Below are positions 24,101-51,268 of a DNA stretch of 64,000 nt, piece after piece. Made by a program: the position numbers and the translations under genes. The notes under the pieces were generated by a model that was not told where the DNA came from, did not search any database, and was given only the letters and a program-made list of their open reading frames with translations. The DNA comes from an uncultured virus (IMG/VR IMGVR_UViG_3300018413_000001) (lineage: Duplodnaviria > Heunggongvirae > Uroviricota > Caudoviricetes). The DNA is taken from IMG/VR virus record IMGVR_UViG_3300018413_000001; one strand, 5' to 3'. Within the stretch, counting starts at the first letter, position 1. Every line of letters starts with the position of its first letter.

Positions 24101-24457
24101 TCACCACACGCCCTCCAGTTTGCCAGTCTTCGGCCCCGGCAGTGAGCACCACTCGTCGATGATCCGTTTGCCTTTCTCCACGTTGTCCGTCCAGTCGGCA
24201 AGCCCCTGGCGTATCAACACTTGCTGGATTTTCTCGGACTGCCCGACTGTCAGCTTTTCGCCGGGGCGTTTCACCTCCAGCAGGGCAGCCACACCATTGG
24301 GGGTGAGCAGCCAGCGGTCAGGCACCGAGCGGTTGTTCGGTGAGGTGAACTTCCACCACAAGCACCCCTTGCTCACGGCATACCTGCCAATGGCAGCCTC
24401 GATGGCTTTTTCACGGGGCTTGTGCTTGTCCGGGTTGTAGAACTTGGGGGGCATCAC
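24101..24457 (-). CDS. VRR-NUC domain nuclease
   Basis: EKAIE...WKFTSP...VPDR...LEVKRPG...Q PD-(D/E)XK signature next to the SNF2 helicase. Confidence 0.85.
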   Translation of the reverse strand: MMPPKFYNPDKHKPREKAIEAAIGRYAVSKGCLWWKFTSPNNRSVPDRWLLTPNGVAALLEVKRPGEKLTVGQSEKIQQVLIRQGLADWTDNVEKGKRIIDEWCSLPGPKTGKLEGVW

Positions 24458-24703
24458 TTAAAAAATCAGCGATTTCCTGCGAACTCTTGCCACCACTTCA
24501 GACATCCCAGAAGTGATCATTTTTGAGACGATGATACCATCATTACGGTCATCAAAATCAGAGATGCCAATGACCAAACCTTTAGGCAGATCTTTTGCCG
24601 CTTTTACAAAAGCATCCACGGCAGTTTTTTCTTTGTCAGTAAGCTTTGCTTCTTCCCTGATTTCTTTTTCAGAGAGCATTACCCAAGTTTTGTTTTTAAT
24701 CAT
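24458..24703 (-). CDS. Hypothetical protein (AT-rich)
   Basis: 81-aa ORF packed between neighbours. Confidence 0.55.
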   Translation of the reverse strand: MIKNKTWVMLSEKEIREEAKLTDKEKTAVDAFVKAAKDLPKGLVIGISDFDDRNDGIIVSKMITSGMSEVVARVRRKSLIF

Positions 24704-24715
24704 GATATTATTGGT

Positions 24716-25096
24716 TCAGTTAATCTTGAGCACCTTCATCATCTCCTGCCGTTCCACGATGTGCAGGCGGCTCAGGAGGCGGCGGAGCATGGTGGGCCGG
24801 TTGCGGGTCTGCACCTCGACCACGATGAGCTTGCGCAGACGGTCAGCCGTGGGGGCCGACTCGTTGAACACCTTGATCAGCGTGGGCCAGTTGACCAGCA
24901 GCGGGGTGTTGTTCCTGACAAAGGCTGTGGAGACAACGACCTCATGGCGTGCCGGGAACACCGGCTGCGGGATCTTCCGCAATGTCGTTTTGCTGGACTT
25001 CGGTTGGGATGCAAAGGTCACATGCTCCGTCTGGGCAGCAAACTTGTGGTTGGGCAGCGAAGCCGGGGCTTTGGACGACGGGTGTTTTTTGTTCAT
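24716..25096 (-). CDS. Hypothetical protein; true start uncertain, overlaps exonuclease 3' end
   Basis: C-terminal basic helix EVQTRNRPTMLRRLLSRL; typical codon usage. Confidence 0.5.
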   Translation of the reverse strand: MNKKHPSSKAPASLPNHKFAAQTEHVTFASQPKSSKTTLRKIPQPVFPARHEVVVSTAFVRNNTPLLVNWPTLIKVFNESAPTADRLRKLIVVEVQTRNRPTMLRRLLSRLHIVERQEMMKVLKIN

Positions 25097-25691
25097 TGGT
25101 TTGTGGTGGGTTTGTAGCAGAATCAGGCACGTTCTGCAAACAGTTTATGTGTTCAAGAATGTTGATGAGGTGCAGCGCCTGGAACTTGGCATCGTCGAGC
25201 GCGTGGTGCTTGATGCCGGTGAACTCGGGCTTCGGAACGCCGGGGAAGAGGTTTTTCAGCGTACGGTAGCAGCGGTGGCCCCAGAACTTCCATGGGATGT
25301 CATAGCCAACACGGCGGAAGGCTTCCTCCATGAGCACCACGTCGAACGTGGCGGCGTTGCCCCACACCTGAACTTCAGCGCCTTGGGCATTCTGAGTCAC
25401 CCAGCCATAGAAGTTGGCCAGCACTGCAATGATGTTGTCACCGGTCTCCCGTGTAATGGACTCACGGGCTTCATCAGACTGCTTCATCCACCATTGCACA
25501 GTGCCAGCGTCCATCTTGAGGCCGTTCTCAAGGCAGCTCTGGAGGTCAACAGGCTGGTAGAATCCATGCCCCAGCTTGCCGTCCTTGATGAAGACGGCTC
25601 CAATGGAGAGGATGGCGGCACCTGGAGTGTTGCCCATGGTTTCGATGTCGATCATGAGATCGACCGGCTGTGGTTTTGGTGGTGTGTTCAT
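24942..25691 (-). CDS. DEDDh 3'-5' exonuclease (Rv2179c/DUF5051-like)
   Basis: MIDIETMG, WGNAATFD, PWKFW..RCYRT, HHALDDA. Confidence 0.85.
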   Translation of the reverse strand: MNTPPKPQPVDLMIDIETMGNTPGAAILSIGAVFIKDGKLGHGFYQPVDLQSCLENGLKMDAGTVQWWMKQSDEARESITRETGDNIIAVLANFYGWVTQNAQGAEVQVWGNAATFDVVLMEEAFRRVGYDIPWKFWGHRCYRTLKNLFPGVPKPEFTGIKHHALDDAKFQALHLINILEHINCLQNVPDSATNPPQTNEQKTPVVQSPGFAAQPQVCCPDGACDLCIPTEVQQNDIAEDPAAGVPGTP

Positions 25692-25713
25692 TTTGTGTTG
25701 AGTGATTGAGATT

Positions 25714-26454
25714 TTACCAGATGCCGTTGAGAGGGTCACACCGGGTTTGTGCGATTTTGAAGTACTCGGGGTCGCGCTCAATACCGATGAACTTGCGCCC
25801 TGTGTTGATACAGGCCACGCCGGTTGTGCCGCTTCCCATGGTGTTGTCGAGCACCGTCTCGCCTTCGTTAGTGTAGGTGCGAATCAAGTATTCCATCAGA
25901 GCGACGGGCTTAATCGTTGGGTGTGCTCCGCTGGTATCGGTATTAAACTTCTGCCAAGATGAAGGCACGCGAAGTTCGCCACGCATCACAACGTCCTCGT
26001 TGTCAAATTTCCGGTAGTTATCACTGGCTGTCTTGTTATTAATGCCATACTTAACCCGACTCGCACCGGCACCGGTTCGCTCCTGCATCTGCTTGTTGTA
26101 AATCCACCCTCCTTGGCTGAACACCAAGGCAACTTCGTGCTCTTTGAAAGGCTCCCGGACTGTATTGGCAAAGTTGCTCCCACGGTTCTTTATCCACACC
26201 CATTCATGCCGAAACATGGTTGGATTACTCATCACCAGTGCGCTCGTAAACGGCTGGCTAGCCGTGAGCACAATAGCCGCATTCTTTTTGCAGATGCGCC
26301 GGTATTGTGCCCACAGTGGGGCGAACGGAATTACCGCGTCCCACTTACAGGCAGTCGTGCCATAAGGCAAATCGGCCATCACCATGTCCACGCTGCCGGT
26401 TTCGATTTCCTGCATGCGCTCAAGGCATTCACCAAGCATCAGTTGAACACTCAT
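25714..26454 (-). CDS. DNA N4-cytosine/N6-adenine methyltransferase (beta class)
   Basis: DLPYG catalytic motif, HPTIKPVAL, VLDNTMGSGTT SAM motif. Confidence 0.9.
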   Translation of the reverse strand: MSVQLMLGECLERMQEIETGSVDMVMADLPYGTTACKWDAVIPFAPLWAQYRRICKKNAAIVLTASQPFTSALVMSNPTMFRHEWVWIKNRGSNFANTVREPFKEHEVALVFSQGGWIYNKQMQERTGAGASRVKYGINNKTASDNYRKFDNEDVVMRGELRVPSSWQKFNTDTSGAHPTIKPVALMEYLIRTYTNEGETVLDNTMGSGTTGVACINTGRKFIGIERDPEYFKIAQTRCDPLNGIW

Positions 26455-28853
26455 TTCATGTAAAAAGGCACTGTTTTTCCTTCGGCCAGCAGAGGCATGC
26501 CCTTTGCCCATTCTGGTGTGCTGGCGAGAAGCCTGCAAAGTTCCTCCGGTGTCTGTCCCGGTTTCTTGTAGTTGAGAGATTCGTCGTGGATGAGGGTGGC
26601 AATCTCGTATCCGGCATCCTCACAGTTGAGGGCCCCGTTGACCATAAAGTCGGCGGCTAAACCTTGGGTGGCATTTTCCGTGTACTTCGCGCCATACGTG
26701 GGAACGCGCCCCCAAGCCTTCGTGCCATCTTTCCCGGTCTTGCCATAATATGTGACAACATCTTTTAGGAAATGCTTTTTCTCACCCACGCGCTCGATGG
26801 CTTTCTGGATGTCCTCGGGCTGCGGTTCAAAGATCTGCACCCGCTTACCCTTGTGCGTGTAGCTCAGGCATTTGACCAGCTCGGGCATGGGGTAGCTGAT
26901 CTCCCGGCCACTCGGCAGACGAAGCAGCAGGAAGCTCGTGCCATTGGCAATCTCCATGACTCGGAACGAAAGCTTGTCATTGACCTCGACCACCTTGCCG
27001 GGGCTCAGCACGGCAGCCCGTGAGCACTGGTCCATCTTGCGCCAGAGCTTCACAATCTCGGGGTGGGACTCACGATAGATCTTGACGACCTCATCCTCGA
27101 AGCCCTCGGGCAGGTCGAAGTATCCATACTTCTCACAGGTCTGCCGGAACTTGGGGCCACCGCCTTGATAGCCCAGCAGCAGCACGGCCTGTTTGCCCAC
27201 GAAACGCTGGGGGAACTCCTGCACCTCTTCATAGGGCACACCATAGATCCTGCTGGCCATCTTCTTGTAACGGTCAATGCCCTGACGGTATTCTTCGAGC
27301 GCGTCTTCCTGACCAGCGAGCCATGCCACACCACGGGCCTCAATGGCAGCGAAGTCGGCTGAGAGCATGTAGTTCTCCAAATACTTCATGCTGGCGCACT
27401 TCGAGCACGGCTCGCTGCGCTTGTACCATTTCTCCGGGGGTCTGCCGGTGCCACCGCAATGCGGGCACACCTGATAGTCGTGGATGAAATGCCGGATGCA
27501 CGAACTGACCACTTCAAGGGGTGGACCATAGACCAGCTCCAACCAGTCGGCATCCCGGCCAGCCAGAATGTCCCGATACGCGGCTTGGGTGAGCCAGCTC
27601 AGGGCTTTGCCCTCGGATTTGAATCCCATGGCCTTCCACGGCATGTCACGCACCAGCCGGGTGGACGGGCGCTTCATGTTCTGGGGCTGCACCTTGAACC
27701 CGGCCCACCGGCCCGGCCCGGCACCCCACAAAATGAGCGTGCCACGCACCCGGTTGTCATCAGGCCCGACCATGGCAAGAATGGCCTTCACCTTCTTCAC
27801 GGCAGCATAGGTGAGCCGTTTGCGCAGCATGAGTGCCCGGCTGATGTCGGTGCCGTCGTCTTCACCGAACTCGGCCTCCTGACTGTCCTCATCCTCTCCA
27901 TCCGACTCCGAGCCACCTGCACCCTCGGCACTGTCGAGGTGCGCGTCCACGGTCTCTGCTTTGAGATCGTTGCCCTGCCAGCCGCGCTGCTGCAACCACG
28001 TGAGTATCTTTTCCCGCTGGGTATGCTTGAGTCCCGTGAGCGCAAAGAACTCGGCTCCGGTCTTGGCCTCGGTCTCCTCAATGATCTTGACTGCATTGTT
28101 GATGGCCGTCAGGTTCACCGGGAACCCGCGCTCGTTGATGGTGAGGTCGAGCTGGAACGTGGCCAGAGCATCCCCGCTCAGGGCGAAGTATTTCAACGTG
28201 TGCGCGGCCTGGCGCTCCACCTCCACGTCCTGACGGCAATACTCGATGAACCGTTTGAAGTCGGCCATGTCAGCCTCGGAGTCGGTGGGCAGGATGCGCT
28301 CGCGGAACGGGTTCTTGGCTCTCTTGGCCAGCAGTTTAGCATTGGTGGTCGGCTTCTGTTTGTTCTTCTGGGGAACGCAAAACTTCTTGATGAGATCATG
28401 CCCCGCCTTGTCCTTCTGAGCCCGCAGCCCGAGGATGCTGCCCACGTCCTCAAGGGCTGGTGGGAGCCCGGCACGGCGGGTCATTGCCTGTGTACAGCGG
28501 AACTGCTCGGGCCGGGGGGCCTTGTAGCCGGTGGTCTTGGTGAAGAGAGCACGGGTGATGGCAGCCTCGAATGGGGCGTTGTGGGCGAAGATGATGTCGC
28601 CTTGAAGGCTGAGAAGAATCAAATCAGCCTCGTGTTGATCCTTGGGGTTCGGATTCTCGCAGATCTCCGGGTTGACCCACACCACGGGGTGGTCGTCGCC
28701 CACAGCCAGACCAATGAGCAGGATCTCCGTGCTCGGGTCGCGCGCATAGCGGTGAGCGCCCACACCCGTCTTGCCACCCAACGGGGCTGCACTGAACGTT
28801 TCGTAGTCCATGTGGACACGGCGGCGCTTCGGGCTGGTGGGGTCATTGGCCAC
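26451..28853 (-). CDS. polA: Family A DNA polymerase with 3'-5' exonuclease
   Basis: DYET, AHNAPFE and YCRQDV exonuclease motifs; SADFAAIEAR motif A, RFVGKQAVLLLGY motif B, IHDE motif C. Confidence 0.92.
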   Translation of the reverse strand: MANDPTSPKRRRVHMDYETFSAAPLGGKTGVGAHRYARDPSTEILLIGLAVGDDHPVVWVNPEICENPNPKDQHEADLILLSLQGDIIFAHNAPFEAAITRALFTKTTGYKAPRPEQFRCTQAMTRRAGLPPALEDVGSILGLRAQKDKAGHDLIKKFCVPQKNKQKPTTNAKLLAKRAKNPFRERILPTDSEADMADFKRFIEYCRQDVEVERQAAHTLKYFALSGDALATFQLDLTINERGFPVNLTAINNAVKIIEETEAKTGAEFFALTGLKHTQREKILTWLQQRGWQGNDLKAETVDAHLDSAEGAGGSESDGEDEDSQEAEFGEDDGTDISRALMLRKRLTYAAVKKVKAILAMVGPDDNRVRGTLILWGAGPGRWAGFKVQPQNMKRPSTRLVRDMPWKAMGFKSEGKALSWLTQAAYRDILAGRDADWLELVYGPPLEVVSSCIRHFIHDYQVCPHCGGTGRPPEKWYKRSEPCSKCASMKYLENYMLSADFAAIEARGVAWLAGQEDALEEYRQGIDRYKKMASRIYGVPYEEVQEFPQRFVGKQAVLLLGYQGGGPKFRQTCEKYGYFDLPEGFEDEVVKIYRESHPEIVKLWRKMDQCSRAAVLSPGKVVEVNDKLSFRVMEIANGTSFLLLRLPSGREISYPMPELVKCLSYTHKGKRVQIFEPQPEDIQKAIERVGEKKHFLKDVVTYYGKTGKDGTKAWGRVPTYGAKYTENATQGLAADFMVNGALNCEDAGYEIATLIHDESLNYKKPGQTPEELCRLLASTPEWAKGMPLLAEGKTVPFYMK

Positions 28854-29073
28854 TGTGTTTTTCTGTTCTTTGGTTTGCTTGTTTCTCTTCGAGACATTTC
28901 ACAAGTTTTTCTGCACATGAGAATCCAGACTTGATTGCAATCCAGTCGGCCTCACCACAGTCAACTATTTCCCCCTTACGCCAAAGAACACCGTCCTTGG
29001 CTGTGATGTCACTCGGGATTGGTTCAAACATAAAATTAAAATGCCCGTGCTGCTTTCTGTACTTCCATCCCAC
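28843..29073 (-). CDS. Hypothetical protein
   Basis: 76-aa ORF overlapping the polymerase start. Confidence 0.5.
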   Translation of the reverse strand: MGWKYRKQHGHFNFMFEPIPSDITAKDGVLWRKGEIVDCGEADWIAIKSGFSCAEKLVKCLEEKQANQRTEKHSGQ

Positions 29074-29128
29074 ATGTGTTCACCATCAGGAGGTTTTCGT
29101 CGGGCAGCACGGGCAAGGTGTTTGGGGT

Positions 29129-29758
29129 TTATGCCAGAGGGTCTTCTTCGTCTCCGGCCTCGTCGTCCGAGCCGCCGTCCTTCTCCAGGTTCTTGAACAC
29201 GGACTTCGGATCAACCGGAGCACCGCCGAACGGTTCGCCATCCTTGACAAACTGCACGGTTTCGAGGCTGGCGAAGATTCCGTTGCCACCCTTGTCCGCA
29301 CCCATGACTGCGTAGATGCGGATGAAATAGTTGCAGTAGCAACCGGCGTAGGTCTTGTTGTCCTCGGCGTAGATCGGGGTCTGTGCATCACGATCCACCA
29401 CGGCTGGCCGTTTGTCATTGGCAGCCTTGAGGATCATCATGCCAGCGTAGCCGTCATAGACCTCGCCGGTCTTTTGGTTGACACAGGAGTCGCCGTCCAC
29501 GAAGCACTTGCGGTCATCGGTCTTGTAGGTGGCCGGGGACTTCTTGAACTTCTCCAGCTCGACCTGCTTGATCAGGTTCTCGATCTTCTTGATGTTGCGT
29601 TTGCCGGTGTCGGTGGTGGGGTCGATGATGATGTTGCAGCGGTACTTGAGACGGCCACCTTCCACGGAGGCCGTGGGCTCGTAAAGGTCGTCGAAGCTGA
29701 GGCGGCCATTCTCGATGAGAATGCCTGCGATTTCTTTTTTGCTTGGGTTCGTAGCCAT
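29129..29758 (-). CDS. Single-stranded DNA-binding protein (DUF2815/gp2.5-like)
   Basis: RLSF...RPAVVD...YAGCY...VQFVKDGEPFGG with acidic tail, between DUF2800-type gene and polA. Confidence 0.85.
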   Translation of the reverse strand: MATNPSKKEIAGILIENGRLSFDDLYEPTASVEGGRLKYRCNIIIDPTTDTGKRNIKKIENLIKQVELEKFKKSPATYKTDDRKCFVDGDSCVNQKTGEVYDGYAGMMILKAANDKRPAVVDRDAQTPIYAEDNKTYAGCYCNYFIRIYAVMGADKGGNGIFASLETVQFVKDGEPFGGAPVDPKSVFKNLEKDGGSDDEAGDEEDPLA

Positions 29759-29795
29759 GGTGTTGTGTGTTTTGGGTGTGGGGTTGAAAAAGTAC

Positions 29796-30626: not shown

Positions 30627-31865
30627 TTATTCCTCGGACGCGGGCAGTGAATCCACGTCCAAATTCTGAAACACGTCAGCCGGGTTGATGTTGATCGACT
30701 CACGCGGGTCATCGTTGGGCACCAGCAGCACGCCGCCCTCGAACTTCCTGATGTAGGGCATCAATCCGCCTGGCTTCATGCCGTGAGCCTTCATCATGTC
30801 CTCAATGGCCTTTGGTGTCTTGAGCTTGGGCTCCGTCTGGGCTTCGTCACCAAACATGACTTCAAGAAACTCGGCTGCCTTCTCAGGATCTTCCCATGAC
30901 CGTGAGCCCTTGCCACGGACAAGCTTGAAACCCTCTGGGATCTTGCCATTGACGGCCTCACCGTAGAACGCCTTGTACACATCATCGACGAATGCTTTGA
31001 TCCTGTTCTTGTTGGCGGCGATGAGCCGGAGGGTGCGCTCGTCGAACTGGCGCAGATCGGTCATCACCTCGTTCGGGTTCACGTCGCTGATGACGATGGC
31101 CCTGTCGGCCCCGGTCCACTCGGTGTAGGCGGCACAGGGCGAGCCCTTGGCGGGTTTCTTCATCGGGCAGAACCGGCATGCCTCGGGCGACGGGCGGAAG
31201 GTCTCGTCGATGCCTGCAATGATCTTCTTGGCGATGCGTTCTATGTTGTCGGTGAACTCCTTCAACTCGGCCCATGTGAGCCGCCAGATGGAGATCTTCT
31301 CGCCTTCACGAATGCGGGGCTGGTAGATGGCAAGCTCGAAAAGGGTGTCCTCGGTGAGGTTGTGCTGGTCATCCCATTCTTGCTCCACCCATGAGCGGGC
31401 ATAGATGGCCATCTGCTCGTTCTCTTCAGCGGTGACGGCAACGCCTTGCCCATACTTGAGATCGGTGATCCGAACGTCCGAGCCGTTCCAGAGACCTTTG
31501 CTTGCGGCATCGACGTAGCCATTGCGGTTGGGCATGTACCAGAGTGAGATCTTCAACTCAGAGTGCAGGTCCACCATGCCGGGGACTTTCACAAACTCAG
31601 CAAACCCTTTGGCGTGCTTCACCATCTCCGGCAGTTTGTCCTTCGGGATCTTCTTGCCCCTGGACTCGGTGGGCAACGGCTGGCCGAGCAGCACCGCGTT
31701 GGCCACGGCATGAGCCATGTCGCCCTCCACGTTCCACACGGTGTCCGTGCTGCCGATCTTGTCGGCGTTCTCAGCGATGAACCGTGGGCTGGCGGTGCAA
31801 GTCAGCCAGCGGGATGCGGCGGACGGCGAGAGTGAAATGACTGGCGGACGGGGGGATGGTTTCAT
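30627..31865 (-). CDS. DUF2800-type PD-(D/E)XK (Cas4-like) nuclease
   Basis: LSPSAASRWLTC, EGDMAH, GYVD...DLKYG, QMAIYA, IYQPR, CRFC...C. Confidence 0.85.
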   Translation of the reverse strand: MKPSPRPPVISLSPSAASRWLTCTASPRFIAENADKIGSTDTVWNVEGDMAHAVANAVLLGQPLPTESRGKKIPKDKLPEMVKHAKGFAEFVKVPGMVDLHSELKISLWYMPNRNGYVDAASKGLWNGSDVRITDLKYGQGVAVTAEENEQMAIYARSWVEQEWDDQHNLTEDTLFELAIYQPRIREGEKISIWRLTWAELKEFTDNIERIAKKIIAGIDETFRPSPEACRFCPMKKPAKGSPCAAYTEWTGADRAIVISDVNPNEVMTDLRQFDERTLRLIAANKNRIKAFVDDVYKAFYGEAVNGKIPEGFKLVRGKGSRSWEDPEKAAEFLEVMFGDEAQTEPKLKTPKAIEDMMKAHGMKPGGLMPYIRKFEGGVLLVPNDDPRESININPADVFQNLDVDSLPASEE

Positions 31866-31949: not shown

Positions 31950-32318
31950 TTACGCGCAAGGATCTTCTTCCGGGGCCTCGGCAGCCAGCGCCTTGAGGGC
32001 CTTCAGCACTTCAGGGTACTTGTCGGGCTCGATCTTGGAGAGGCCGGTGGCACCGAAGCTCTTGTTGATCTCGACCAACTTGTCCTTCTTGCCAGCGTTC
32101 ACGCACTCGGTGGCGACGGCGCGAAGGTCTTCGAGCGTCACAGCCGGGGCTGCGGGCTTCTCGGGTTTGGCAGCCTTGGCTGGCTTGGCCGGAGTTTCAG
32201 GAGCAGGGGGTGGTGTGCTCGGCGGACTGGCCGGAGCCGCGTAACCGGTCAAGATGGGAGCCAGGGCTTCGGCAAGATGTTTGGCGGACTCGGGATTGAT
32301 GGTGATTTCGATTTTCAT
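31950..32318 (-). CDS. Conserved-type replication module protein with Pro/Ala linker
   Basis: MKIEITI N-terminus, P/A/K linker, VTLEDLR...FGATGLSKIEPDKYPEVL C-domain; usual position upstream of DUF2800 genes. Confidence 0.7.
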   Translation of the reverse strand: MKIEITINPESAKHLAEALAPILTGYAAPASPPSTPPPAPETPAKPAKAAKPEKPAAPAVTLEDLRAVATECVNAGKKDKLVEINKSFGATGLSKIEPDKYPEVLKALKALAAEAPEEDPCA

Positions 32319-32411: not shown

Positions 32412-35018
32412 TCACCAGATGTCTGCGATTTTTTTCTGGTCCTCCATCTTCTGCCTGACATAAGCGCCAAGGTCGGTCACGTCCTTGAGCCTGCCATTGC
32501 GGACCCAGATGGTCTGTTTCTTGCCGTCAAGCATGGACCGTTTGCCTGAGTGGTACCCGAGGTTGCGCAGCCGCTGGGCAAGCTGATGGTCGCTGCACCC
32601 TTGGGCACCTTCAATGTTGAAGATGGCGCTGAGATCCTTGGCCACGATGAAGTCGCTGTTGACCTGCACATGCTCACCCTCTTCGATCAGGCGGCGGATC
32701 AGCGTTGTGACCTCATCACTGGTGTCCTCAATGACCTGATCACGGAAGATGGTGTATGGCGCACGCCCGTTGGCGTCGAAGTCACTGCTGATGGGGTGGT
32801 TTTCAAACACATATCGCAGGGCTCCGGCGCGTTCCTTGAGCAGGTCAAAGAGAGCGGTGAAATAGCCGGTTTCAGACAAAGCCTTGATCTCTTCTTCCTC
32901 TTGCAGGATGGCCTTCAGCACGAAGTAACGCCGGTCATCGTGCGCTAGGGCAAGGGCATCATGGTGGTTCGAGAACGCGATGTAGTTGGTGATGTTCTCC
33001 TCAGTGCGCGTGTCCTTGTTGCGCTGGTTGACCGGGATGTCATCATTGGTGATCAGCTCCTTGAGCTTGTTCATGATCTCATATCGGTTCTCGCCCGTCA
33101 CACGGATTTCTTCAATGCCGACCAACTGGGCCCCCGTGGCCCACTCGTTCCAGTTTCCCGAGATCGAGGCTTTGTTGACCAGCTTGGCGTGGCCCTGACC
33201 GAGAACCGCCAGCATCAGTTTGAAGAAGAACGTTTTGCCGCAGCCAGCCCCGCCTTGAAACAGCACAGCCCAGCGGGCTTTCACACCGGGAAACTGGACA
33301 TTGAAGGCCATCCAGTCCCACAGCACTGACCGGTATTGAGGGTTGGCGATGAGCACTTCAAGATGCTTGTCAATCAGAGCCTTGGCCTCATCAGCATACT
33401 CTTTTGTCGGGGTGGGGAAGTTGGCCCGGTAGGTGTTGACGTACCACAGCCCTTCCTTCTTGGTGTAGATCTTCCCCGGCTCTGAAGGCGTATAACGGTA
33501 GCCGTCCACACACTGGATCTTGTGCAGGTTCAGTGCGAAGTCCTGTGGCCGGATGATCGGCTTCGACAATACTGCGGGGTCTGCGTCATCCCCTGCTGTG
33601 GCCGGGTCGGGGAGGAGCTTGCGGCCAAAGGCGTTGTTGAAGGCGTCACAGTCCATGCGCCGGGTGGTGCGGTGCTGAAAAAACTCATTGCGGGAGGTGA
33701 CATAACACCAGCCCTTGAGCCATCCTGGCATCTCCTTGCTGTCCTGGCTCTCGTCCTTCTGAGCCGCCTTGGCCTTGAGCTTCTTGAGGTCTTTGCGCAG
33801 ATCCCCAATACTGGCGTCAATGCCGAGCTTCTTGGCCTGCCGGATGACAGCATTGAGCAGCACGCCTTCTTCCGTGTCCGAGAGCATGACGGCTGCCATG
33901 ATCTTCTGAAGGGCCAATGTGGTCAGGTCGGTCTTGGTCCGGCCTTCCTCCCGTATCCAGTTGAGCACCGAGTTGAATGAAACCTCTTTTACCGGAGCCG
34001 CATTGTATCCACCGTCCACGGCGGCATGGATCAACGAACGGATGGTGACGGGCACCCGGCCCATAGGGGTTGGTTGAATGCAGTTCCACTTGGCCAGTGT
34101 GTCGTCCCGCCCGAGGTATTTCTTGGTGCCCTTGGCCGACCACTCATCAAAGATCTCGAACGCTTCAGACGCGTGCTTATGGGAGAACTGGTGCTTGAGG
34201 GCTGACGCCATCGCGATCCACGGCAGCATCTCGATGTCCGGGTCCACGTGGGACAGAGCTTCCTTGGCAATCTCCAAGGTGATCTCAGGAACCGGGGGAC
34301 GGAGAAAGGCCAGAGCGTCTTCACTGTTGTGGGCCTTGTCGCTGGTGTATCCCTTGGGCTCCACGCCCATGATCTCGTCCATCTCCACGTCATGGACCTG
34401 CCGGGGTTGCAGGGCCTCCCCGATGAGTTCACCGCAGAAGGTCGGGTGCTCGTCAATGTGCTGGCCGGCAAACAACACCGGCAGGAACATGGGCTGCACG
34501 GCCACCTCGGACTCGGGGGTGATGATGGTGAGGCCAATGCGCTGGGCGATGGTGGCCACGGCTGCCGGATACATTGACAACGGGATGGCGTCCGCCGAGA
34601 CCATGATACGGATGCGCGGCTTCTCGGGGGTGCTGCTGATCGTGTGGTAGGCCACGAAGGCCAGCGGGGCGAGCTGGTCGCGCAAGATTTGAGGGTTCTT
34701 GACGAACGGGGCAGCCGGGCACAGGCCGGTCTTCTTGTCCTCGTCAATGTCGAGGAAGATCAGGTTGCAGACCGTGGCGTTCTCGGTCTTGCGGGGCACG
34801 TTGTCCGCCTTGAAGGCTGCCGGGGTGAGCAGGGTCAGCTTGTCCCGTTTGTACTTGTCACGGGCTGCCTTGGGCATCGCCATGAACCCGTCCTGCGTGA
34901 GCGCCAGTGGGATGGGGGTGTGGATGCAGGTCTCGACCAGCTCGCGGAAGGTGGTGGCCGGGCATGAGGACACCCATGTGGTGACGGACTGGCCTGTAAA
35001 ATATTTGGCTGCGGGCAT
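32412..35018 (-). CDS. Primase-helicase (primase domain, PriCT-2, SF3/DUF5906 helicase)
   Basis: FLDID and YHTISS primase motifs, WIAMASALK...FDEWS PriCT-2, GGAGCGKT Walker A, GIEE, FSNH, DDRRY. Confidence 0.88.
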   Translation of the reverse strand: MPAAKYFTGQSVTTWVSSCPATTFRELVETCIHTPIPLALTQDGFMAMPKAARDKYKRDKLTLLTPAAFKADNVPRKTENATVCNLIFLDIDEDKKTGLCPAAPFVKNPQILRDQLAPLAFVAYHTISSTPEKPRIRIMVSADAIPLSMYPAAVATIAQRIGLTIITPESEVAVQPMFLPVLFAGQHIDEHPTFCGELIGEALQPRQVHDVEMDEIMGVEPKGYTSDKAHNSEDALAFLRPPVPEITLEIAKEALSHVDPDIEMLPWIAMASALKHQFSHKHASEAFEIFDEWSAKGTKKYLGRDDTLAKWNCIQPTPMGRVPVTIRSLIHAAVDGGYNAAPVKEVSFNSVLNWIREEGRTKTDLTTLALQKIMAAVMLSDTEEGVLLNAVIRQAKKLGIDASIGDLRKDLKKLKAKAAQKDESQDSKEMPGWLKGWCYVTSRNEFFQHRTTRRMDCDAFNNAFGRKLLPDPATAGDDADPAVLSKPIIRPQDFALNLHKIQCVDGYRYTPSEPGKIYTKKEGLWYVNTYRANFPTPTKEYADEAKALIDKHLEVLIANPQYRSVLWDWMAFNVQFPGVKARWAVLFQGGAGCGKTFFFKLMLAVLGQGHAKLVNKASISGNWNEWATGAQLVGIEEIRVTGENRYEIMNKLKELITNDDIPVNQRNKDTRTEENITNYIAFSNHHDALALAHDDRRYFVLKAILQEEEEIKALSETGYFTALFDLLKERAGALRYVFENHPISSDFDANGRAPYTIFRDQVIEDTSDEVTTLIRRLIEEGEHVQVNSDFIVAKDLSAIFNIEGAQGCSDHQLAQRLRNLGYHSGKRSMLDGKKQTIWVRNGRLKDVTDLGAYVRQKMEDQKKIADIW

Positions 35019-35033: not shown

Positions 35034-35294
35034 CTACCAAACGCCGTCGAGGGGGTCAACCGATTGTGCGGGCGGTTCCGGCAATACATGGGGCATGCTG
35101 CCAAGAAAGTCGGTGGTTGGGAAAACATTGGTGGGCTGCTTTTCCATATTTGATTGGCTAGAGATGATGATTTCATTCCACCGCGTCAAATTGTTAAAAA
35201 GATTTGCCTGCATCATGGCAGAAGCAGAACGACCCTCGTGAAAAAGCCGGTAATAGTAGGCCGGTTTGCTGTAATCAGAAAAAGGTGTGTTCAT
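35034..35294 (-). CDS. Hypothetical protein ending in DPLDGVW
   Basis: 86-aa ORF with ATGA overlap. Confidence 0.6.
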   Translation of the reverse strand: MNTPFSDYSKPAYYYRLFHEGRSASAMMQANLFNNLTRWNEIIISSQSNMEKQPTNVFPTTDFLGSMPHVLPEPPAQSVDPLDGVW

Positions 35295-36016: not shown

Positions 36017-36406
36017 TTAAAACACATCGGCCAGCGGGTCGGCGGCAGCCTCCACAGCCGCGCCTCCCGCCTTCTTCAAAAACAAAAACGTCACGAACCG
36101 TGGAACGCCACGCTCGTCGGACTGGTCCACCAGCGCCACGGAGGCGTGCTGCAACAGCAGATGCACGGCCTTGTCCATGCTGGCCAGCGGGATGCTGGCC
36201 TCGGCCAGCGAGTAATCCCACGGCTCCAGTGACAGCTCCAGGTATTCGCATAGGCCGGTGCCCGCCAGCCATTCATTCACCCTGTCTGCGTCGTCGCCGT
36301 AGCAGACGAACTTGCCGCCCCAGTTGAAGAGGCCGATGTCAGCGCGTGGCGAGGCTGACTTGATGCGGGAGTGCCGCTGCCTGATGATGTCAATGAGTGT
36401 GTCCAT
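36017..36406 (-). CDS. Stand-alone MutS domain I-like protein
   Basis: IKSASPRADIGLFNWGGKFVCYGDDA...SIP...LL...VALVDQ follows the MutS_I pattern K..P..I.LF..G.FY..F..DA...G.P...L...VA..EQ. Confidence 0.55.
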   Translation of the reverse strand: MDTLIDIIRQRHSRIKSASPRADIGLFNWGGKFVCYGDDADRVNEWLAGTGLCEYLELSLEPWDYSLAEASIPLASMDKAVHLLLQHASVALVDQSDERGVPRFVTFLFLKKAGGAAVEAAADPLADVF

Positions 36407-45184: not shown

Positions 45185-45757
45185 ATGCTCACGAAAGAAC
45201 GCTCTCGTATTGACAACCTCACATCCTCCCTTAGCCCGGAATCATGGGCCGCATTGAAGCTGGCTAGCATAGGCGGGACTTCCGACAGGGACTTGTCAGA
45301 GGTCTATGAAGTGACTGAAGATGCAATCCGAAAGAAGAGAAGCCGTGACAAGGTATGGGCCGTGTCGGTCGGATTGAGAAATCAGGCATTAGGTAAGGTT
45401 GGCTTAAAGTCAAAACACCTCAAAGAGCTGATCCCCGACACACAACGACACAAAGAGGCCGAGAATGCCGCTCTAGGGGCAATTGCAGCCACCTTCGCAG
45501 ACGAATCTCAGGCAGCCCGCCTCCTTGCGCTACAGATTGGCACCAAGGGCCTCAAATCGAGTCTGGATAGTGAAGGTGGCCTAAAGCCCCATCTCGCGCC
45601 TATGGAGCCCGCACACGTCAAAGTCTACGCGGAGATCGCGGCCAAAGCAGGCCAGTGGGGCGGAGACAACCAGGTCACAATCAACTGTCAGGCCTACGCA
45701 GGGTCGGTGATTGCGCCTCTCAGTAATGAGAGTGAAGACAATATAGTGGATATTTGA
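45185..45757 (+). CDS. Putative terminase small subunit
   Basis: N-terminal HTH (TSDRDLSEVYEVTEDAIRKKRSRDKVW), helical middle, C-terminal QVTIN strand; terS-like size. Confidence 0.5.
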   Translation: MLTKERSRIDNLTSSLSPESWAALKLASIGGTSDRDLSEVYEVTEDAIRKKRSRDKVWAVSVGLRNQALGKVGLKSKHLKELIPDTQRHKEAENAALGAIAATFADESQAARLLALQIGTKGLKSSLDSEGGLKPHLAPMEPAHVKVYAEIAAKAGQWGGDNQVTINCQAYAGSVIAPLSNESEDNIVDI

Positions 45758-46059: not shown

Positions 46060-46088
46060 TTGACACTACGGTATTAACGTGTTAAGTA
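46060..46088 (+). promoter_or_regulatory. Sigma70-like promoter upstream of HNH gene
   Basis: TTGACA-17 nt-TAAGTA. Similar TTGACA boxes precede 47521, 48278 and 50277. Confidence 0.45.
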
Positions 46089-46097
46089 TCTCACACC

Positions 46098-46883
46098 ATG
46101 GCGCATCCACGATTCAACGACCTCACCGGAAGACGGTTCAACCGCTGGCTCGTGATTGAGCAGGCACCGCCCGAGTTCACGGGAAAACCACCCCACCAGA
46201 AAAAGGTCGTGGGGCAGTCCCGGTGGAAGTGCAAATGCGACTGCGGCACCATCAAGGAAAGAGTTCTCTACGGCAGCCTCGTGAGAGGACACTCCCAGTC
46301 TTGTGGGTGCTTGCACTGGGAGCAGATGAGGAAGCCGGATGAAGACAAGAAGACGCTCCACCCATTGCACAAGACGTGGGTGAGCATGAAGACCCGGTGC
46401 TATAACTTGAACCATCCGTCATCGAAGCACTACGGGCAGAGGGGCATCATGGTGTGTGCTCGGTGGCTGGATAGTTTTGAAACCTTTGTCGAGGACATGG
46501 GGCCAAGGCCCACACCAGACCACACACTTGAACGCAAGGACAACAACGGGCACTACACACCCGGCAATTGCACATGGGCCACACGGGACGCGCAAAACTC
46601 GAACAAACGGTCAAACGTCAAGCACCTGTGGAAGGGGGAAGTTCGCACGCTCACCCAGGTTGCCCGCATGGAAAACGTGGATTACACCGATCTGTACATG
46701 CGGACAAAGGGTGATCCGTCATCATTGGAGCTGGTTGTCAAAACACTCCAACAACAGGGCAGAACTTTCTTTGAGCGTGCCAAGGGCATGGGTGCCACAA
46801 GCAAGAACAAGACCAGCCAGAAGCGCACCCGCCGCATGATTGAAGGCAGGTTTGTCATCGACCCGCTGGCCGACGTGTGGTGA
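46098..46883 (+). CDS. HNH endonuclease
   Basis: DLTGRRF...WKCKCDCG...SCGC N-domain; MKTRC...YGQRGI..C..W; TLERKDNNGHYTPGNCTWAT...Q..NKR HNH core. Confidence 0.85.
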   Translation: MAHPRFNDLTGRRFNRWLVIEQAPPEFTGKPPHQKKVVGQSRWKCKCDCGTIKERVLYGSLVRGHSQSCGCLHWEQMRKPDEDKKTLHPLHKTWVSMKTRCYNLNHPSSKHYGQRGIMVCARWLDSFETFVEDMGPRPTPDHTLERKDNNGHYTPGNCTWATRDAQNSNKRSNVKHLWKGEVRTLTQVARMENVDYTDLYMRTKGDPSSLELVVKTLQQQGRTFFERAKGMGATSKNKTSQKRTRRMIEGRFVIDPLADVW

Positions 46884-46931
46884 TCCACACATCCGCTCAA
46901 TTTTTACCCACACACACACACACGCATTGTC

Positions 46932-47456
46932 ATGGCCACCCCAATTAAAGACCTCACCGGAAAAACATTTAACCGCTGGTTTGTGATCGAACAGGCACCC
47001 AGCGACCCTGCACGTTCACAAACCCTGTGGCGCTGCCGGTGCTCATGTGGCGTGGTCAAGGAAGCCGTTGCATATTGCAGCCTGACATCAGGCAGATCCG
47101 GCTCATGTGGGTGTGTCAAACGCGAGCAGGGTGAAAGGCGCAGGGCCATGAAGGAATCTGCCAATCACCACAACAAGCACATGTGGTGGGGCAAACTGAT
47201 GAAGCTCACGGAGATTGCCCGTCAGGAGAATGTGGATGCCATGGAGCTTCGGCGCAGGTATCTCTGCCAAGGCATTGCTCTTGATTGTGCTGTGATGGCG
47301 CTTAAGCACGAAGGCCGTGTATTCCACGAACGAGCAGCCAGCTATGGGGCAACAGGCGAGACAAGAACCGGGAAGAAACGCACGAGACATGTTGCCAATG
47401 GGAAACTGCTGCACCCCGTATGTGAACCGCCCGACCCCCTTGCCGGCATCTGGTAA
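46932..47456 (+). CDS. Paralog of the HNH gene lacking the nuclease core
   Basis: DLTGKTFNRWFVIEQAP...WRCRCSCG...SCGC joined directly to KHMWWG...LTEIARQENVD...FHERA, matching both ends of 46098-46883. Confidence 0.8.
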   Translation: MATPIKDLTGKTFNRWFVIEQAPSDPARSQTLWRCRCSCGVVKEAVAYCSLTSGRSGSCGCVKREQGERRRAMKESANHHNKHMWWGKLMKLTEIARQENVDAMELRRRYLCQGIALDCAVMALKHEGRVFHERAASYGATGETRTGKKRTRHVANGKLLHPVCEPPDPLAGIW

Positions 47457-47520
47457 GACACATCACACTTTTTGTAACATCATCGTTGACATAACAGCAC
47501 CAGCATTGTAAAACACACCC

Positions 47521-47739
47521 ATGGACACACCAACAACACTGCCAACATCAGAGTTCACCCCCAGGTTCAAACGCGGCGACATCGTGCGCCTCAACAGCGG
47601 AGGGCCGCAGATGACGGTGGAGGACCCAGCCGGAGAAGAGGACGAAATGGCGGAGTGCACGTGGTTCACCGACGACGGCAGCACCGGGCCATTGTCGCAT
47701 TGCTTCTTCGAGGAATGTCTCACTCTTGTCACACCATGA
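47521..47739 (+). CDS. YodC/DUF2158-like protein
   Basis: FKRGDIVRLNSGGPQMTV...CTWF. Confidence 0.75.
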   Translation: MDTPTTLPTSEFTPRFKRGDIVRLNSGGPQMTVEDPAGEEDEMAECTWFTDDGSTGPLSHCFFEECLTLVTP

Positions 47740-49235
47740 CCATCATTGTCACACTCTCGCTCATCTCATGGGCTGTTGTCATCACAGTTCTCACAATTGG
47801 TGTCAGCCAGAAAAATGAAGACTGCGCCATGGCTGGAGCAGTTCTTTTAATTGGGCTGGTTATCGTCCACTTCTCTTTTAGCGTCGGGGCGTTTTGGCAG
47901 CATAATGACACATTGGAGAAGTACAATCTTGTCAAGAAAACCCACCCGGCCACGCCACAATGACCACAGACCCCCACGCCCCGGCGTTCCCTTCGTCCGC
48001 AACCACGGAGACATCACGCAGCAGCCTCGGCCTCTCTGTCCGGGAATACATCGCCACACGGGCCATGGAGAGGCTGCTGGCTGACACGGCGGTGGACTGG
48101 AAGCCGTCGTCACTGGCGAAATACTCCGTCAGCATTGCAGACGCGCTGATCGCGGAGCTGAACAAGCCTGTGGATGACAACACGTCATAATCACACTTTC
48201 TGTGTTGACAATACCGCAGCGCGTGGCACCATGCCGCACCACGTCAGTTTGAAGAAACATAAAACGAAACAGAAACCATGACACCATCAGCAGCCATCAT
48301 TGTCTTTGTTGCGGTCTTCACGATTGCACTGGCCATCTGCATCTATACAGACCCACTCCCATGACCACACTTCTCTCCACCATCGACAAGCTCTGCGCCT
48401 CGTTGCAGCAGGGTGACGTGGCTGTCGTCCTCACCCGCCCCGACCTTGCCACACTGACCAGCTTGGTCGAGAAGTCGTGGAGCACCAACGACGAGTTCAA
48501 GATCTTGGGGAACCTGAAGAAACTGATGGAGGCGAAGAACCCACTATGAGCACCCAACAAGAACAGACCGCAGCAGATCCAACCCCAGCGGGCAAGATGA
48601 GCGACAAGGAGCTGGCTGAAAGCTACCAAAATACTACAGCAGCATCTCATGTAGGCCATTCAGTTTATAAATGGGACGAGCTTTCACAGGATCATCAAGA
48701 GGCTCGCATTCAAGGAATCCGCGCCGTGCGTGAGCAGGTGGGGGAGGAGCAAGCCGAGGAAATCGCCCGACTCACTGCGGAGCTTGAGGAGAAGAACAGA
48801 CGATTCTCCACCTTGCAAGAAACCATGGTTTCTTATCGCGATGAAAGCCGCTCTCTCGCCGCCCAGCTCGCCGCCGTGACAGCCGAGCTTGAGCGGATGC
48901 AATGGAGGCCGGTTAGCGTGAAGCCGACGAGGGGGGATGCAGACGAAGGAGGATTTGTAACCGTTCTTCGTGCTGACAAGTTGACTGCCATTGTTCAATG
49001 GGATGCTAACGGTTTTAATCCTGACTTCGATTGGAGGCAAATAAGCCAAGCGTTGCGTTACACAAAATGGCGTGCCGCCGCTTTACCACCATCACCCTCC
49101 GCTGAAGAGGTCGAGAGGGAGAGGTTTGAGAAGTGGTACCAAGACTACAAAGCGATTAAGTCGCCCAAAGGTCTAGCATTTGACGCATGGCAAGCCCGCG
49201 CATCGAAGGAAACAACCCCGCCTACCACCAAATGA
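47736..49235 (+). CDS. Small hypothetical genes (47736-47963 membrane protein, 47960-48190, 48278-48364, 48361-48549, 48546-49235 coiled coil)
   Basis: Coupled ORFs; 47960-48190 has the common phage PAFP...GLSVREYIA...ADALIAEL pattern. Confidence 0.6.
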
Positions 49236-49732
49236 AAATCCTCTGTCTCCTCGCCAACACGTGGCATCCCGACCCCACGGCCCTCCACCAGCTCCTCTCA
49301 CGTCAGCCCGACAGACGGCACGAGGCCATCGCCCGGCACCTGTTCTACACCAAGAACCTCACCGGCTCACGCCTTCTGACCGTGTTCGGCCAGCACTTTA
49401 AAGCACACCACACCATCTTCGAGCACGCCTCGACGACCAGCCCGGCCATCGGTGACAGCGGAGGCCGTCCGGCCTACAACGTGGAGCATGTGCGCCAGGT
49501 CATCAACCGTCACCGGCCCGACGTGATCCTCGCCGTGGGCGTCGGCCCGCAGGATGCCATCAAGGACATGCGGGCAGCCAAGAAGGCATCCTCCCCGCTG
49601 CCGCCTGTCATCGACTGCATTCAGCCATCGACCACCCGGCCAGGATGGTTGAAGCGGATGACGGCTGCACGGGACGAGCTTGACATGGTGCTGGTGGGCA
49701 GACGGTTCGCAGAAATGGGGGTGGGGTTGTGA
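49232..49732 (+). CDS. Hypothetical protein, weak resemblance to uracil-DNA glycosylase-like fold
   Basis: TGSRL...INRHRPDVILAVG...IQPS pattern. Confidence 0.35.
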   Translation: MKILCLLANTWHPDPTALHQLLSRQPDRRHEAIARHLFYTKNLTGSRLLTVFGQHFKAHHTIFEHASTTSPAIGDSGGRPAYNVEHVRQVINRHRPDVILAVGVGPQDAIKDMRAAKKASSPLPPVIDCIQPSTTRPGWLKRMTAARDELDMVLVGRRFAEMGVGL

Positions 49733-50465
49733 GTGCGGAAACACCAGAATTCATATATGTTCTGTCCCACGGCGAAGGACGGTATGAAGATTATTGTGAA
49801 CATGTGATTGCAGCTTCATTTAGGGAGGATGCTTTTACCCAGAAAATTGCTGATCACGATGCCGCCCAAGAAGGTCCACATTGGGAATGGGATTCTCACA
49901 TGTTTGTCACCAAAACCCAGATTGAGCAATGACCTCTTCTTTCACACCACCCACAGACCCTCTCACCGCCATCGGGCCAGCCCTGTTCGCCACAGCCGTC
50001 ATCTTTGTGATCTATGGAGCCCGGCAGCTCCACATCGGTCTCACCCAGACCCACGAGCAGCAGGTTCGCACGGAGGCCCAGCGGCTGATGCTGCGCTTCT
50101 GCAAGAACCCGACACAGAAGCGGTTCGAGGCGGCGTGGCGTTACATCGAGGAGAATGATGTCTGGGTCTCCGAGCTTGACCAGCCGCTGGTGCAGCGGTT
50201 CAACAACATGGTCGGCAGTGTGAACATCAAGTAAGCAGACAGTTGACAATATGTCAGCATAACATTAAGACATATTATGAACAACCCATCACCTGACGAC
50301 GACAAGACACCGGGCCGGGACGCGCTGGCCCTGGCGTTCTACGACCCCGCGTGGCATGAGATGTCACCGGAGGCCATGCACCGGATGCCCGACGAGTGGC
50401 AGGGCCGCATGGCCGCGCTGATCAACGAGTTCGCGCTCCACAACCAGGAAGAATCCCAACAATGA
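49729..50465 (+). CDS. Small hypothetical genes (49729-49932, 49929-50234, 50277-50465)
   Basis: Coupled ORFs; 49929-50234 has an N-terminal hydrophobic helix. Confidence 0.55.
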
Positions 50466-50734
50466 AACAACGCAACCCAGTCCTCGACAAACAACCCGAG
50501 ATGGTTCGGGAATACAACGTTCTGCTCAGCAGATCCGGTCTCTCGTACAAAGAACTCACAGATGCCCTTGGTGTGAGGTATGAATGCCTCCATAACAGAA
50601 AACGTGGCAAGCAAACCATCACCACGGAAGCTCTGCTGGCCCTGCGCATGGTGGTGCTGGGCCGTGAGGCCGACCAGCTCGTGGCCAGGGCAAAGGCGCA
50701 GACCGGCGTTGATCCGTTGGAGGGGGTTTACTGA
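50462..50734 (+). CDS. XRE-like HTH protein ending in DPLEGVY
   Basis: SGLSYKELTDALGVRYECLHNRKRG...ITTEALLAL. Confidence 0.7.
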   Translation: MKQRNPVLDKQPEMVREYNVLLSRSGLSYKELTDALGVRYECLHNRKRGKQTITTEALLALRMVVLGREADQLVARAKAQTGVDPLEGVY

Positions 50735-51268
50735 TTGAAGTCACAGCCCAATAGCAATTACATTAGCAACGATGTGGTGATGACTCCGCTGCACCTTGCC
50801 AAGCGGATTGTTGAGCATTTCAAGCCTTGCGGTAATGTGCTTGAACCGTGTGCAGGTGAAGGCAGTTTCATGAATGCTTTGCAAAAATATTCAGAAAACT
50901 ACCAGCCCATTGGCATTGACTGGTGCGAGGTATCCAAAGGCCGGGACTTTTTCAACTGGGGGGCCAAAGCCAACTGGATCATCACCAACCCGCCATGGAG
51001 TCAGATCCGGCAGTTCCTTCAGCACAGCATGGTATTGGCTGATGAGATTGTGTTCCTGATGACAGTGAACCACTGCTGGACAAAGGCCCGTGTGCGCGAT
51101 GTAAAGCAGCACGGGTTCGGCATCAAAGAGATTTGCCTTGTGGAGTTTCCACCGGAGTTCCCGTCATCTGGGTTCCAGCTTGGGGCCATCCACTTTTCCC
51201 GAGACTGGAAAGGTGACATCAAGTTTTCAGACATCTCACAACAAGACCCACTCGAAGGAGTTTGGTAA
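50735..51268 (+). CDS. Small DNA adenine methyltransferase
   Basis: VMTP, LEPCAGEGSF SAM motif, DFF, IITNPPWS catalytic motif. Confidence 0.8.
   Translation: MKSQPNSNYISNDVVMTPLHLAKRIVEHFKPCGNVLEPCAGEGSFMNALQKYSENYQPIGIDWCEVSKGRDFFNWGAKANWIITNPPWSQIRQFLQHSMVLADEIVFLMTVNHCWTKARVRDVKQHGFGIKEICLVEFPPEFPSSGFQLGAIHFSRDWKGDIKFSDISQQDPLEGVW

Follow-up and report, generated by a model that had tools for sequence, protein, structure and literature searches.

Why should seven genes on both strands of one phage genome end in the same seven residues? We analysed a 64,000-nucleotide stretch of DNA from an uncultured virus of the Caudoviricetes (IMG/VR record IMGVR_UViG_3300018413_000001), referred to in full length as the window, in which a sequence-only reading had reported seven such ends. 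All seven were where that reading had placed them, and a six-frame search with DP[LIV]xx[VIL][WFY]-stop gave 7 matches at these same sites (7/7). On the minus strand, DPLNGIW-stop (25714..25737) ends an N6/N4 DNA methyltransferase (25714-26439), DPLADVF-stop (36017..36040) ends a MutS-domain-I-like protein (36017-36406), and DPLDGVW-stop (35034..35057) ends an 86-aa protein unassigned to any family (35034-35294), which lies directly upstream of the primase and whose orthologues, 44-49% identical, retain the tag. On the plus strand, the tag ends an HNH endonuclease (46098-46883; DPLADVW-stop, 46860..46883), an HNH paralogue (46932-47456; DPLAGIW-stop, 47433..47456), a repressor-like HTH protein (50462-50734; DPLEGVY-stop, 50711..50734) and a small DNA methyltransferase (50735 or 50780 to 51268; DPLEGVW-stop, 51245..51268). 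The claim that two further minus-strand genes keep the last five positions was also correct: a VRR-NUC nuclease (24101-24454) ends in KLEGVW-stop (24101..24121) and the primase-helicase (32412-35018) in KIADIW-stop (32412..32432), both without DP.

These nine ends stood, and three minus-strand genes with a short form had been missed: an Enc34/gp2.5-type SSB (29129-29758), whose acidic tail finishes in DPLA-stop (29129..29143); a phrog_408 protein (31950..32318) composed of an N-terminal segment, a Pro/Ala linker and a three-helix domain, ending DPCA-stop; and a 351-aa protein (4549-5604) ending DPLS-stop (4549..4563), whose glycosyltransferase likeness is a lead only. A 3'-5' exonuclease (24942-25691, minus strand) carries a degenerate extended form, DPAAGV-PGTP (24945..24974), which is uncertain. 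The earlier gene assignments held for both methyltransferases, VRR-NUC, the primase-helicase, HNH and the repressor; the MutS-I likeness is a lead only (Atlas score 0.95; orthologue E 0.0093), and the second HNH protein, labelled an HNH paralogue, has lost the HNH catalytic core while retaining the tag.

The frequency of the tag was then set against chance in 89 genes. Of the 95 called, 6 had been set aside ahead of the count: an opposite-strand call at 51361, and 5 calls past position 58400 that lie within or opposite a giant gene wrapping around the circle. DPLx[GD][VI][WFY]-stop ended 7/89 genes where 2.6e-5 were expected and matched internally at 0 of 16,046 positions, and the five-position motif ended 9/89 against 0.013 expected, with 5 internal matches. 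All 9 tags lie at the ends of genes that a self-trained codon model predicts, and a motif-agnostic statistic found a cluster of 8 C-termini, whereas neither of two null sets of 5,000 each gave a cluster above 5. Tagged genes made up 8 of 18 hand-classified DNA-acting genes and 1 of the remaining 71 (Fisher p=5e-6). Thus the tag is enriched at gene ends and restricted to DNA-acting proteins, as had been proposed for a phage-wide address. The ten residues preceding each tag in the window have a net charge between -2 and +1 and are not acidic, and the sequences flanking the tags are unrelated to one another. On the null statistics, the codon test described below and a matching record, we rejected chance, an artefact of assembly and a repeat in the window DNA: record G001 shares 40.5 kb with the window at 100% identity, and the DNA is natural. 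No tRNAs were found in the window, and in RNA run X7 the region was present as contigs only, which alone do not show transcription.

The conserved thing might be the DNA itself, a recombination site for swapping gene cassettes with the peptide incidental to it. One crossover does fall exactly on a tag: the single HNH gene of relative G005 follows the first HNH gene of the window up to the tag (38/60 nt vs 14/60), and from the first tag base it follows the second (24/24, then 26/60 downstream vs 17/60). A contig of run X15 joins the repressor tag to the methyltransferase tag (50713 to 51248), its short side being only 22 letters, and in G002 a non-homologous gene occupies the slot of 35034 with a tag identical at 22/24 nt. 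In orthologue pairs, tag codons were identical at 54/72 sites against 46.5 expected (z 1.9). Within the window, however, same-residue pairs used identical codons in 34/89 cases against 33.2 from codon usage, so that synonymous sites are random and conservation is at the peptide level, as the sequence-only reading had claimed. Furthermore, substitutions in the tag are chemically conservative (V/I, W/F/Y/M, G/D), the tag is always in frame before a stop, and other clades use unrelated words. We regard a DNA site as a highly improbable explanation; recombination is more readily understood as a side effect that promotes spread of the tag.

Relatives of the window were compared using tail patterns. 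Close relatives retain the tail and carry it on genes that the window lacks as well, such as one for a PAPS-reductase-family protein, and sister clades end the same orthologues in other tails, [DE][IFL]C, Ex[WF][IV] and DxLIG. With patterns A (broadened), B, C, D and E, all fitted after inspection of the data, tagged genes numbered 9/89, 6/83 and 10/65 in records of clade A, to which the window belongs, 5/83 and 4/56 in clade B, and 6/28, 11/49, 4/84 and 7/68 in clade C; G006 (10/82) and G010 (7/73) have distinct tails of their own. Per-record counts showed no cross-clade matches of any clade's pattern. The motif-agnostic statistic was not significant in G011 (p=0.19), G017 (0.14), G003 (0.06), G007 (0.08) and G009 (0.48), and reached 0.023 in the cassette-less G013, on basic tails. 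Between orthologues, tag residues were identical at 101/119 positions vs 92/170 just upstream, the pairs not being independent. The tag has been appended to an otherwise untagged methyltransferase family, as expected of a tag acquired independently of the protein: only 4/120 homologues among the matches listed carry it, one of them on a different linker. Tails therefore change in concert between clades and are added to untagged families. A scan of viral sequences with the pattern gave 12 loci: 4 in clade A, 4 short off-frame matches, 2 without a DPL match, and 2 large-terminase ends in unrelated phages, which count against a clade-private reading.

The tail follows the primase-DUF2800-SSB-polymerase-VRR-NUC-SNF2 cassette and not the capsid. 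Cassettes of DUF2800, DUF2815 SSB, polymerase, VRR-NUC and SNF2 are frequent among phages, both Chi/Nazgul-like and many others. In G011 the capsid is 86% identical and the cassette 28-51% identical, and this record has C-type tails and no A tag; five capsid relatives without the cassette had 0 matches to any tail pattern. Homologues of the gene at 4549 carried a tail in 0/5 cassette-less records vs 5/8 others, and all 5 matched their local SSB-type tail. The tails of SSB and DUF2800 co-varied over 23 clusters (p=0.0016); most of the other pairs tested lacked significance, among them SSB with primase, with VRR-NUC and with SNF2. In clade C every cassette protein except PolA is tagged. Both the DUF2800 exonuclease (30627..31865, minus strand), untagged in the window, and the SNF2-like helicase (22385..23860, minus strand), with an acidic end there, are tagged in sister clades. 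An HTH protein that by inspection may resemble a terminase small subunit (45185..45757, plus strand) ends in IVDI in the window and is tagged in G003 and G017.

The reader might instead be supplied by the host, with the beta sliding clamp or a pocket for SSB tails as the most plausible choices; clades would then differ because their hosts do, and a change of host could go along with a change of cassette. The host is probably a member of the Verrucomicrobiota, as judged solely from 10/10 organism-named methyltransferase homologues; a search of genome_contigs with the primase alignment gave no prophage relatives. The clients resemble those of the clamp (polymerase in some phages, methyltransferases, integrase, terminase subunits and the MutS-I-like protein), the L-x-x-hydrophobic-aromatic spacing is similar to clamp ligands, Gln-less clamp ligands exist (PMC11139829, excerpt), and distant relatives end in DLF or in a host-SSB-like VPF. 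Moreover, tails outlast a polymerase swap and an SSB swap, as would be expected of a reader outside the phage. Nevertheless, the motif Q-phi-x-[LM]-(x)-[FL] fits 0/9 tags, and a terminal Trp weakens clamp binding, as defined and reported in the same excerpt. Besides its private tag, clade C has another gene whose product ends in a clamp-like QEELPL/QEEMPL. A search of 185,579 genomes of bacteria and archaea, made with a single pattern and two of the stop codons, gave 45 exact matches, of which none was a credible protein end, and in G011 the virion module is shared while the tail differs. An address on DNA-acting proteins is supported, and the host clamp suggested as its hub is disfavoured relative to a phage-encoded reader; a host hub of any kind seems unlikely.

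The tail could alternatively be a degron or a shield, through which a host protease, perhaps aided by a phage adaptor, times how long early DNA-acting proteins persist. Its strictly C-terminal position and hydrophobic end would suit this role, as would clients whose removal could be timed, such as nucleases and the repressor-like protein. We consider it improbable, as concerted clade turnover and linkage to the cassette are unexpected for a conserved host protease, other clades' tails are strongly acidic, and the tail is continuous with that of SSB, a docking element in T7-type SSBs (PMC5686142, excerpt).

Taken together, the heptapeptide is probably a clade-private C-terminal docking motif read by a protein of the phage replication-recombination cassette. 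A pocket on one of these proteins (primase-helicase, phrog_408, DUF2800, gp2.5-type SSB, polymerase, VRR-NUC or SNF2) would bind the tag and thereby hold methylases, nucleases and regulators at replicating phage DNA, much as the gp4 and gp2.5 tails of T7 act on gp5, here with about a dozen clients. Because some clients retain only one half of the tag, we infer a pocket with two subsites, one for DPL and one for [VI][WFY]-COOH. The code may have originated from the SSB tail, and drift of the pocket or replacement of the cassette would lead to re-tagging of all clients; bacterial defences that sense phage SSB are a possible reason for this turnover. The sequence-only reading did not recognise the motif as described, and our literature search, conducted outside subscription journals and supplements, likewise gave no description of the tail or of co-varying tails in the cassette.

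Within the cassette, the untagged family A DNA polymerase (26451..28853, minus strand; PolA fold confirmed) is the leading candidate reader in the window clade, although only tentatively. PolA was never tagged (0/34 sequences), and 11 PolA sequences held no internal tag copy. Record L049 has PolA and L035-L037 an unrelated PolB-like polymerase, itself ending LDHLI, while their other cassette proteins are 76-89% identical with the same DD[LM]I tails; since the swap left these tails unchanged, polymerase cannot be the only reader everywhere. A PDB sequence search with PolA did not align it to T7 gp5, which prevented mapping of the T7 front basic patch, and inspection of 11 aligned PolAs gave no defensible clade-specific pocket. 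Another cassette protein (DUF2800, SNF2 or primase) is possible but less likely. The SSB is very improbable, because G017 retains C tails although its SSB is only 23-28% identical to those of clade C. The three-helix domain of phrog_408, a candidate reader or adaptor, is distinctly unlikely to be the reader. Three helices are predicted in it; it had no Pfam family and no PDB sequence match under E 0.047, and its fold matches did not exceed what helical bundles give in general (best Z 5.5, with 80alpha Sak). Red-beta CTD was absent among the best 50 fold matches listed, no annealase fusion occurred among 24 longer matches and 20 scanned proteins, and domain type does not follow tag class. A broader proposal, which we hold as a long shot, is that phrog_408, with an oligomerising end, a flexible linker and 1-3 three-helix domains, acts as a multivalent adaptor collecting tagged enzymes on phage DNA, that tag DNA doubles as a crossover point, and that genes entering or leaving at the tag are addressed automatically, giving a rewritable code of a large, widespread cassette family.

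Among known systems, T7 is a close parallel. Its gp4 primase-helicase and gp2.5 SSB dock on basic patches of gp5 through C-terminal tails (PMC12593628, PMC12339929; excerpts), and here too the primase (KIADIW) and the SSB (DPLA, reading DLDGVM in G005) end in related tails, the family A polymerase is untagged and the long-form clients end in an aromatic residue. In contrast to T7, around a dozen clients, among them methylases, HNH proteins and a regulator, share a defined seven-residue word, which has no acidic run in the nine long-form clients, changes in concert between clades and is also found with a PolB-like polymerase. The T7 tail combines a long acidic stretch with an aromatic end, whereas here the SSB tails are acidic and end in A/G/M, and the long-form clients are aromatic-ended and not acidic upstream. 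The T4/RB69 gp45 clamp, bound by the C-terminal motif of gp43, gp33 and gp55, likewise provides one interchangeable word on unrelated proteins and a phage-encoded hub (PMC2988020, excerpt), but the main T4 client is the polymerase, which is untagged here (0/34 PolA ends). No clamp or clamp loader was recognised in the window by 93 Pfam and 74 PHROG scans, and divergent clamps can escape such scans (PMC4889955, excerpt). Like the beta-clamp motif, the tag is a short linear motif on DNA-acting enzymes with two terminal hydrophobic anchors; it differs in lacking Gln, in having V/I-W instead of L-F and in being clade-private (motif as defined in PMC11139829). SSB tails are also read by annealase domains, namely the lambda Red-beta three-helix CTD and HK620 Sak4 with its cognate SSB (PMC6393309, PMC5928155). 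There, as may be the case here, a phage partner recognises the last SSB residues, and phrog_408 is likewise a predicted three-helix bundle beside an exonuclease and SSB; yet those systems have one tail and many pockets, whereas here many proteins bear the tail.

A clade-private tail that is replaced on as many as a dozen proteins together offers a natural case of pocket-and-ligand co-evolution. The tail would also single out those genes without a known role that work at the replication fork, and it suggests a way in which newly arriving methylases and nucleases are integrated; orthogonal tag-reader pairs could serve as tools. Related tails occur in the cultured phages PspYZU01, AH2 and AchV4, so the reader should be findable there.

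Seven proteins on both strands had been proposed by the sequence-only reading to share one C-terminal heptapeptide tag, DPLx[GD][VI][WFY], and these proved to be the sole six-frame matches before a stop codon in the window. The tag ends 7 of the 89 called genes (2.6e-5 expected) and has no match among 16,046 internal protein positions, and its five-position form (the last five positions only) ends nine. A motif-free cluster statistic reached 8 in the window, against at most 5 in 10,000 nulls. Codon identity among the seven tags was at expectation (34/89 observed, 33.2 expected), and the constraint therefore acts on the peptide, in agreement with that reading. Its link to DNA-acting proteins also held, with the tag on 8/18 such genes and 1/71 others (hand-made classes; p = 5e-6). 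Three further genes carry a short form at their ends: the SSB (DPLA), phrog_408 (DPCA) and a 351-aa glycosyltransferase-like protein (4549-5604, reverse strand; DPLS). The SSB of a related record, G005, ends in DLDGVM, an intermediate linking the short and long forms. A second motif, P-x-[DS]-V-F-x-N-L-[DE], lies upstream of the DUF2800 (30627-30680) and SSB (29160-29215) ends and is possibly a separate docking element. A 65-aa zinc-finger-like protein (22207-22404) ends in DASLF, clamp-like without the Gln.

The window is nearly all of a circular phage genome of ~64.1 kb, because record G001, 100% identical to it over 1-28042 and 51509-64000, joins these two segments across 96 bases. The replication cassette is of the Chi/Nazgul kind, with a primase-helicase, phrog_408, DUF2800, an Enc34-type SSB, VRR-NUC, SNF2 and a family A polymerase (PolA) whose predicted model is Klenow-like (pLDDT 84). 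A ~3,000-aa gene spans the window ends (58367-64000 plus 1-3306; called at 3,012 aa in G001), and family profile scans of its part at 10-3306 gave no match. Glycosyltransferase-like and methyltransferase genes form a reverse-strand block (4549-8826) amid virion genes; the C-terminal region of the 351-aa protein weakly matches a small-terminase family (E 0.007). All 10 small MTase homologues that carry an organism name were from Verrucomicrobiota.

Sequence comparison indicates that the tag is kept in relatives and appended to proteins. In orthologue pairs between the window and G002, G005, G019 and L104, which are not independent, tag residues were identical at 101/119 positions versus 92/170 immediately upstream. 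Relatives' genes missing from the window are also tagged, including a PAPS-reductase-family protein. Untagged homologues elsewhere, a point raised by the earlier reading, were found: among the best 120 of 594 small MTase homologues only 4 are tagged, the window's own copy included. The small MTase domain stops directly ahead of the tag, and in one tagged homologue the tag sits on a longer, different linker. The second HNH gene (46932-47456), a paralogue of the tagged endonuclease at 46098-46883, has lost its catalytic core and retained the tag.

Relatives were gathered by SSB alignment, giving 99 fetched loci and then whole records, and sister clades were found to use other C-terminal words. 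In clade B, [DE][IFL]C ends primase, DUF2800, VRR-NUC and SNF2; in clade C, Ex[WF][IV] ends these four as well as MTases, HNH and the MutS-I-like protein. G006 places DxLIG at the ends of its SSB, exonuclease, integrase, MTases and other proteins, and G010 has DD[LM]I. With patterns fitted post hoc on data already seen, counts per record were 9/89, 6/83, 10/65, 3/21 and 3/39 in the window's clade A, 5/83, 4/56 and 4/23 in clade B, 6/28, 11/49, 6/26, 4/84 and 7/68 in clade C, 10/82 in G006 and 7/73 in G010; G009 had no pattern matches. Long patterns never matched across clades, bar one G006-type match in G002. By an unbiased statistic, the window, G005, G004, G008 and G006 gave the lowest attainable p (0.003) and G002, G010, G003 and G007 were marginal; G011, G017, G009 and G019 did not reach significance. 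Among 20 protein pairs tested across 23 clusters (SSB <60% identical, with clades B and C taken together), the tails of SSB and DUF2800 co-varied (p = 0.0016); SSB tails did not co-vary significantly with those of primase, VRR-NUC or SNF2, and PolA ends co-varied with no partner. Sections of four cultured phages also have related common ends. These stand out clearly in PspYZU01 (two DEDGLI, two DLEDLI), can be seen in AH2 (DPADGL on the SSB, DPAEGL on the small terminase) and in AchV4, and are weak in pPM_01.

Similar words also occurred elsewhere. In the distant relatives L046, L054 and L076, VPF, presumably host-SSB-like, ends the primase and a clamp-like QGKLLF ends VRR-NUC. In two unrelated phages (L013:10001-10819, L015:10001-11374), DPLxG[VI]W ends a terminase, either the large subunit or the nuclease part of it, with no further such ends within the fetched DNA; this may be convergence or another use of the word. 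In a Verrucomicrobiales MAG, a single element repeated at the ends of six contigs (L207, L219, L239, L241, L242, L249) carries DPFAGVW before a stop, in a frame running open to the contig edge.

Natural swaps separated cassette from virion. In G011 the capsid is 86% identical to that of the window, but cassette identity is only 28-51%; the A tag is absent, and its primase, DUF2800, HNH and MutS-I-like protein carry C-type tails. Five complete capsid relatives (G012-G016) lack polymerase, SSB, primase, SNF2 and VRR-NUC, though G016 has a DUF2800 match, and none matches any tail pattern. Homologues of the 351-aa protein carry a tail in 0/5 of these records and in 5/8 others, where it matches the local SSB-type end. 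These comparisons indicate that the tail follows the cassette, not the virion. Two other swaps cut against simple answers on the reader, the proposed binder of the tail. G017 retains C tails with an SSB just 23-28% and a PolA 65-68% identical to clade C. Locus L049 has PolA, exchanged in L035-L037 for an unrelated PolB-like polymerase (a label inferred from weak Pfam matches of slot-mates and the AchV4 annotation), in cassettes otherwise 76-89% identical and with the same tails. The initial reading of PolA as universal reader is thus weakened, because L035-L037 replaced it yet kept L049's tails. Within the window's own family, PolA stays the sole cassette protein never tagged (0/34), and it is a candidate reader there.

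The shared tail is real, and its docking reader is a matter of candidates. A pocket on a cassette protein probably binds the tail and keeps the tagged client proteins at phage DNA during its replication. There MTases would shield newly made DNA and nucleases would process forks. The phage-wide addressing system proposed earlier therefore survives as a clade-private, cassette-linked tail on DNA-acting proteins, but its suggested hub, the host clamp, is disfavoured as reader: 0/9 tags fit the clamp motif, a clamp-like end occurs separately in clade C, and the one pattern searched was not found at the end of any credible bacterial protein. C-terminal docking tails are already known from T7, bacterial clamps and T4 (PMC2988020). 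The model for the proposed docking is T7, where acidic gp4 and gp2.5 tails bind basic patches of gp5 (PMC12593628, PMC12339929); the Enc34 SSB has a T7-like kind of tail that rests in a neighbour's groove in crystals (PMC5686142). The present tails differ from those of T7 in client number, in a long form whose upstream residues are not acidic, and in clade turnover. A second candidate reader is phrog_408. It occurs in 69/99 loci and has a predicted three-helix domain, attached through a flexible linker, of which 51 of the best 150 relatives have two or three tandem copies; its fold matches are weak. It adjoins exonuclease and SSB, as does the Red-beta domain that binds the SSB tail (PMC6393309, PMC5928155). 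In phrog_408 of L044 (7789-8040), L085 and L068, EEDDPL stands directly before the three-helix domain, not C-terminally. Searches of open-access papers turned up no description of this tag or of tails that co-vary within such a cassette; new here are the evidence from swaps, the related tails in cultured phages and crossover at the tag.

Tag DNA itself can act as a site of crossover. In G005, the HNH gene resembles the window's first HNH gene up to the tag and the second from the tag's first base, and G002 has a non-homologous gene in the 35034 slot (an 86-aa protein directly upstream of primase) whose tag is 22/24 nt identical. In a contig of sequencing run X15, the repressor's tag is joined to the MTase's, resting on just 22 letters. 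Such crossover may help genes acquire the tag; it does not explain tag conservation. At L006:15695-18050, an MTase flanked by two copies of the SNF2 gene start suggests insertion with duplication.
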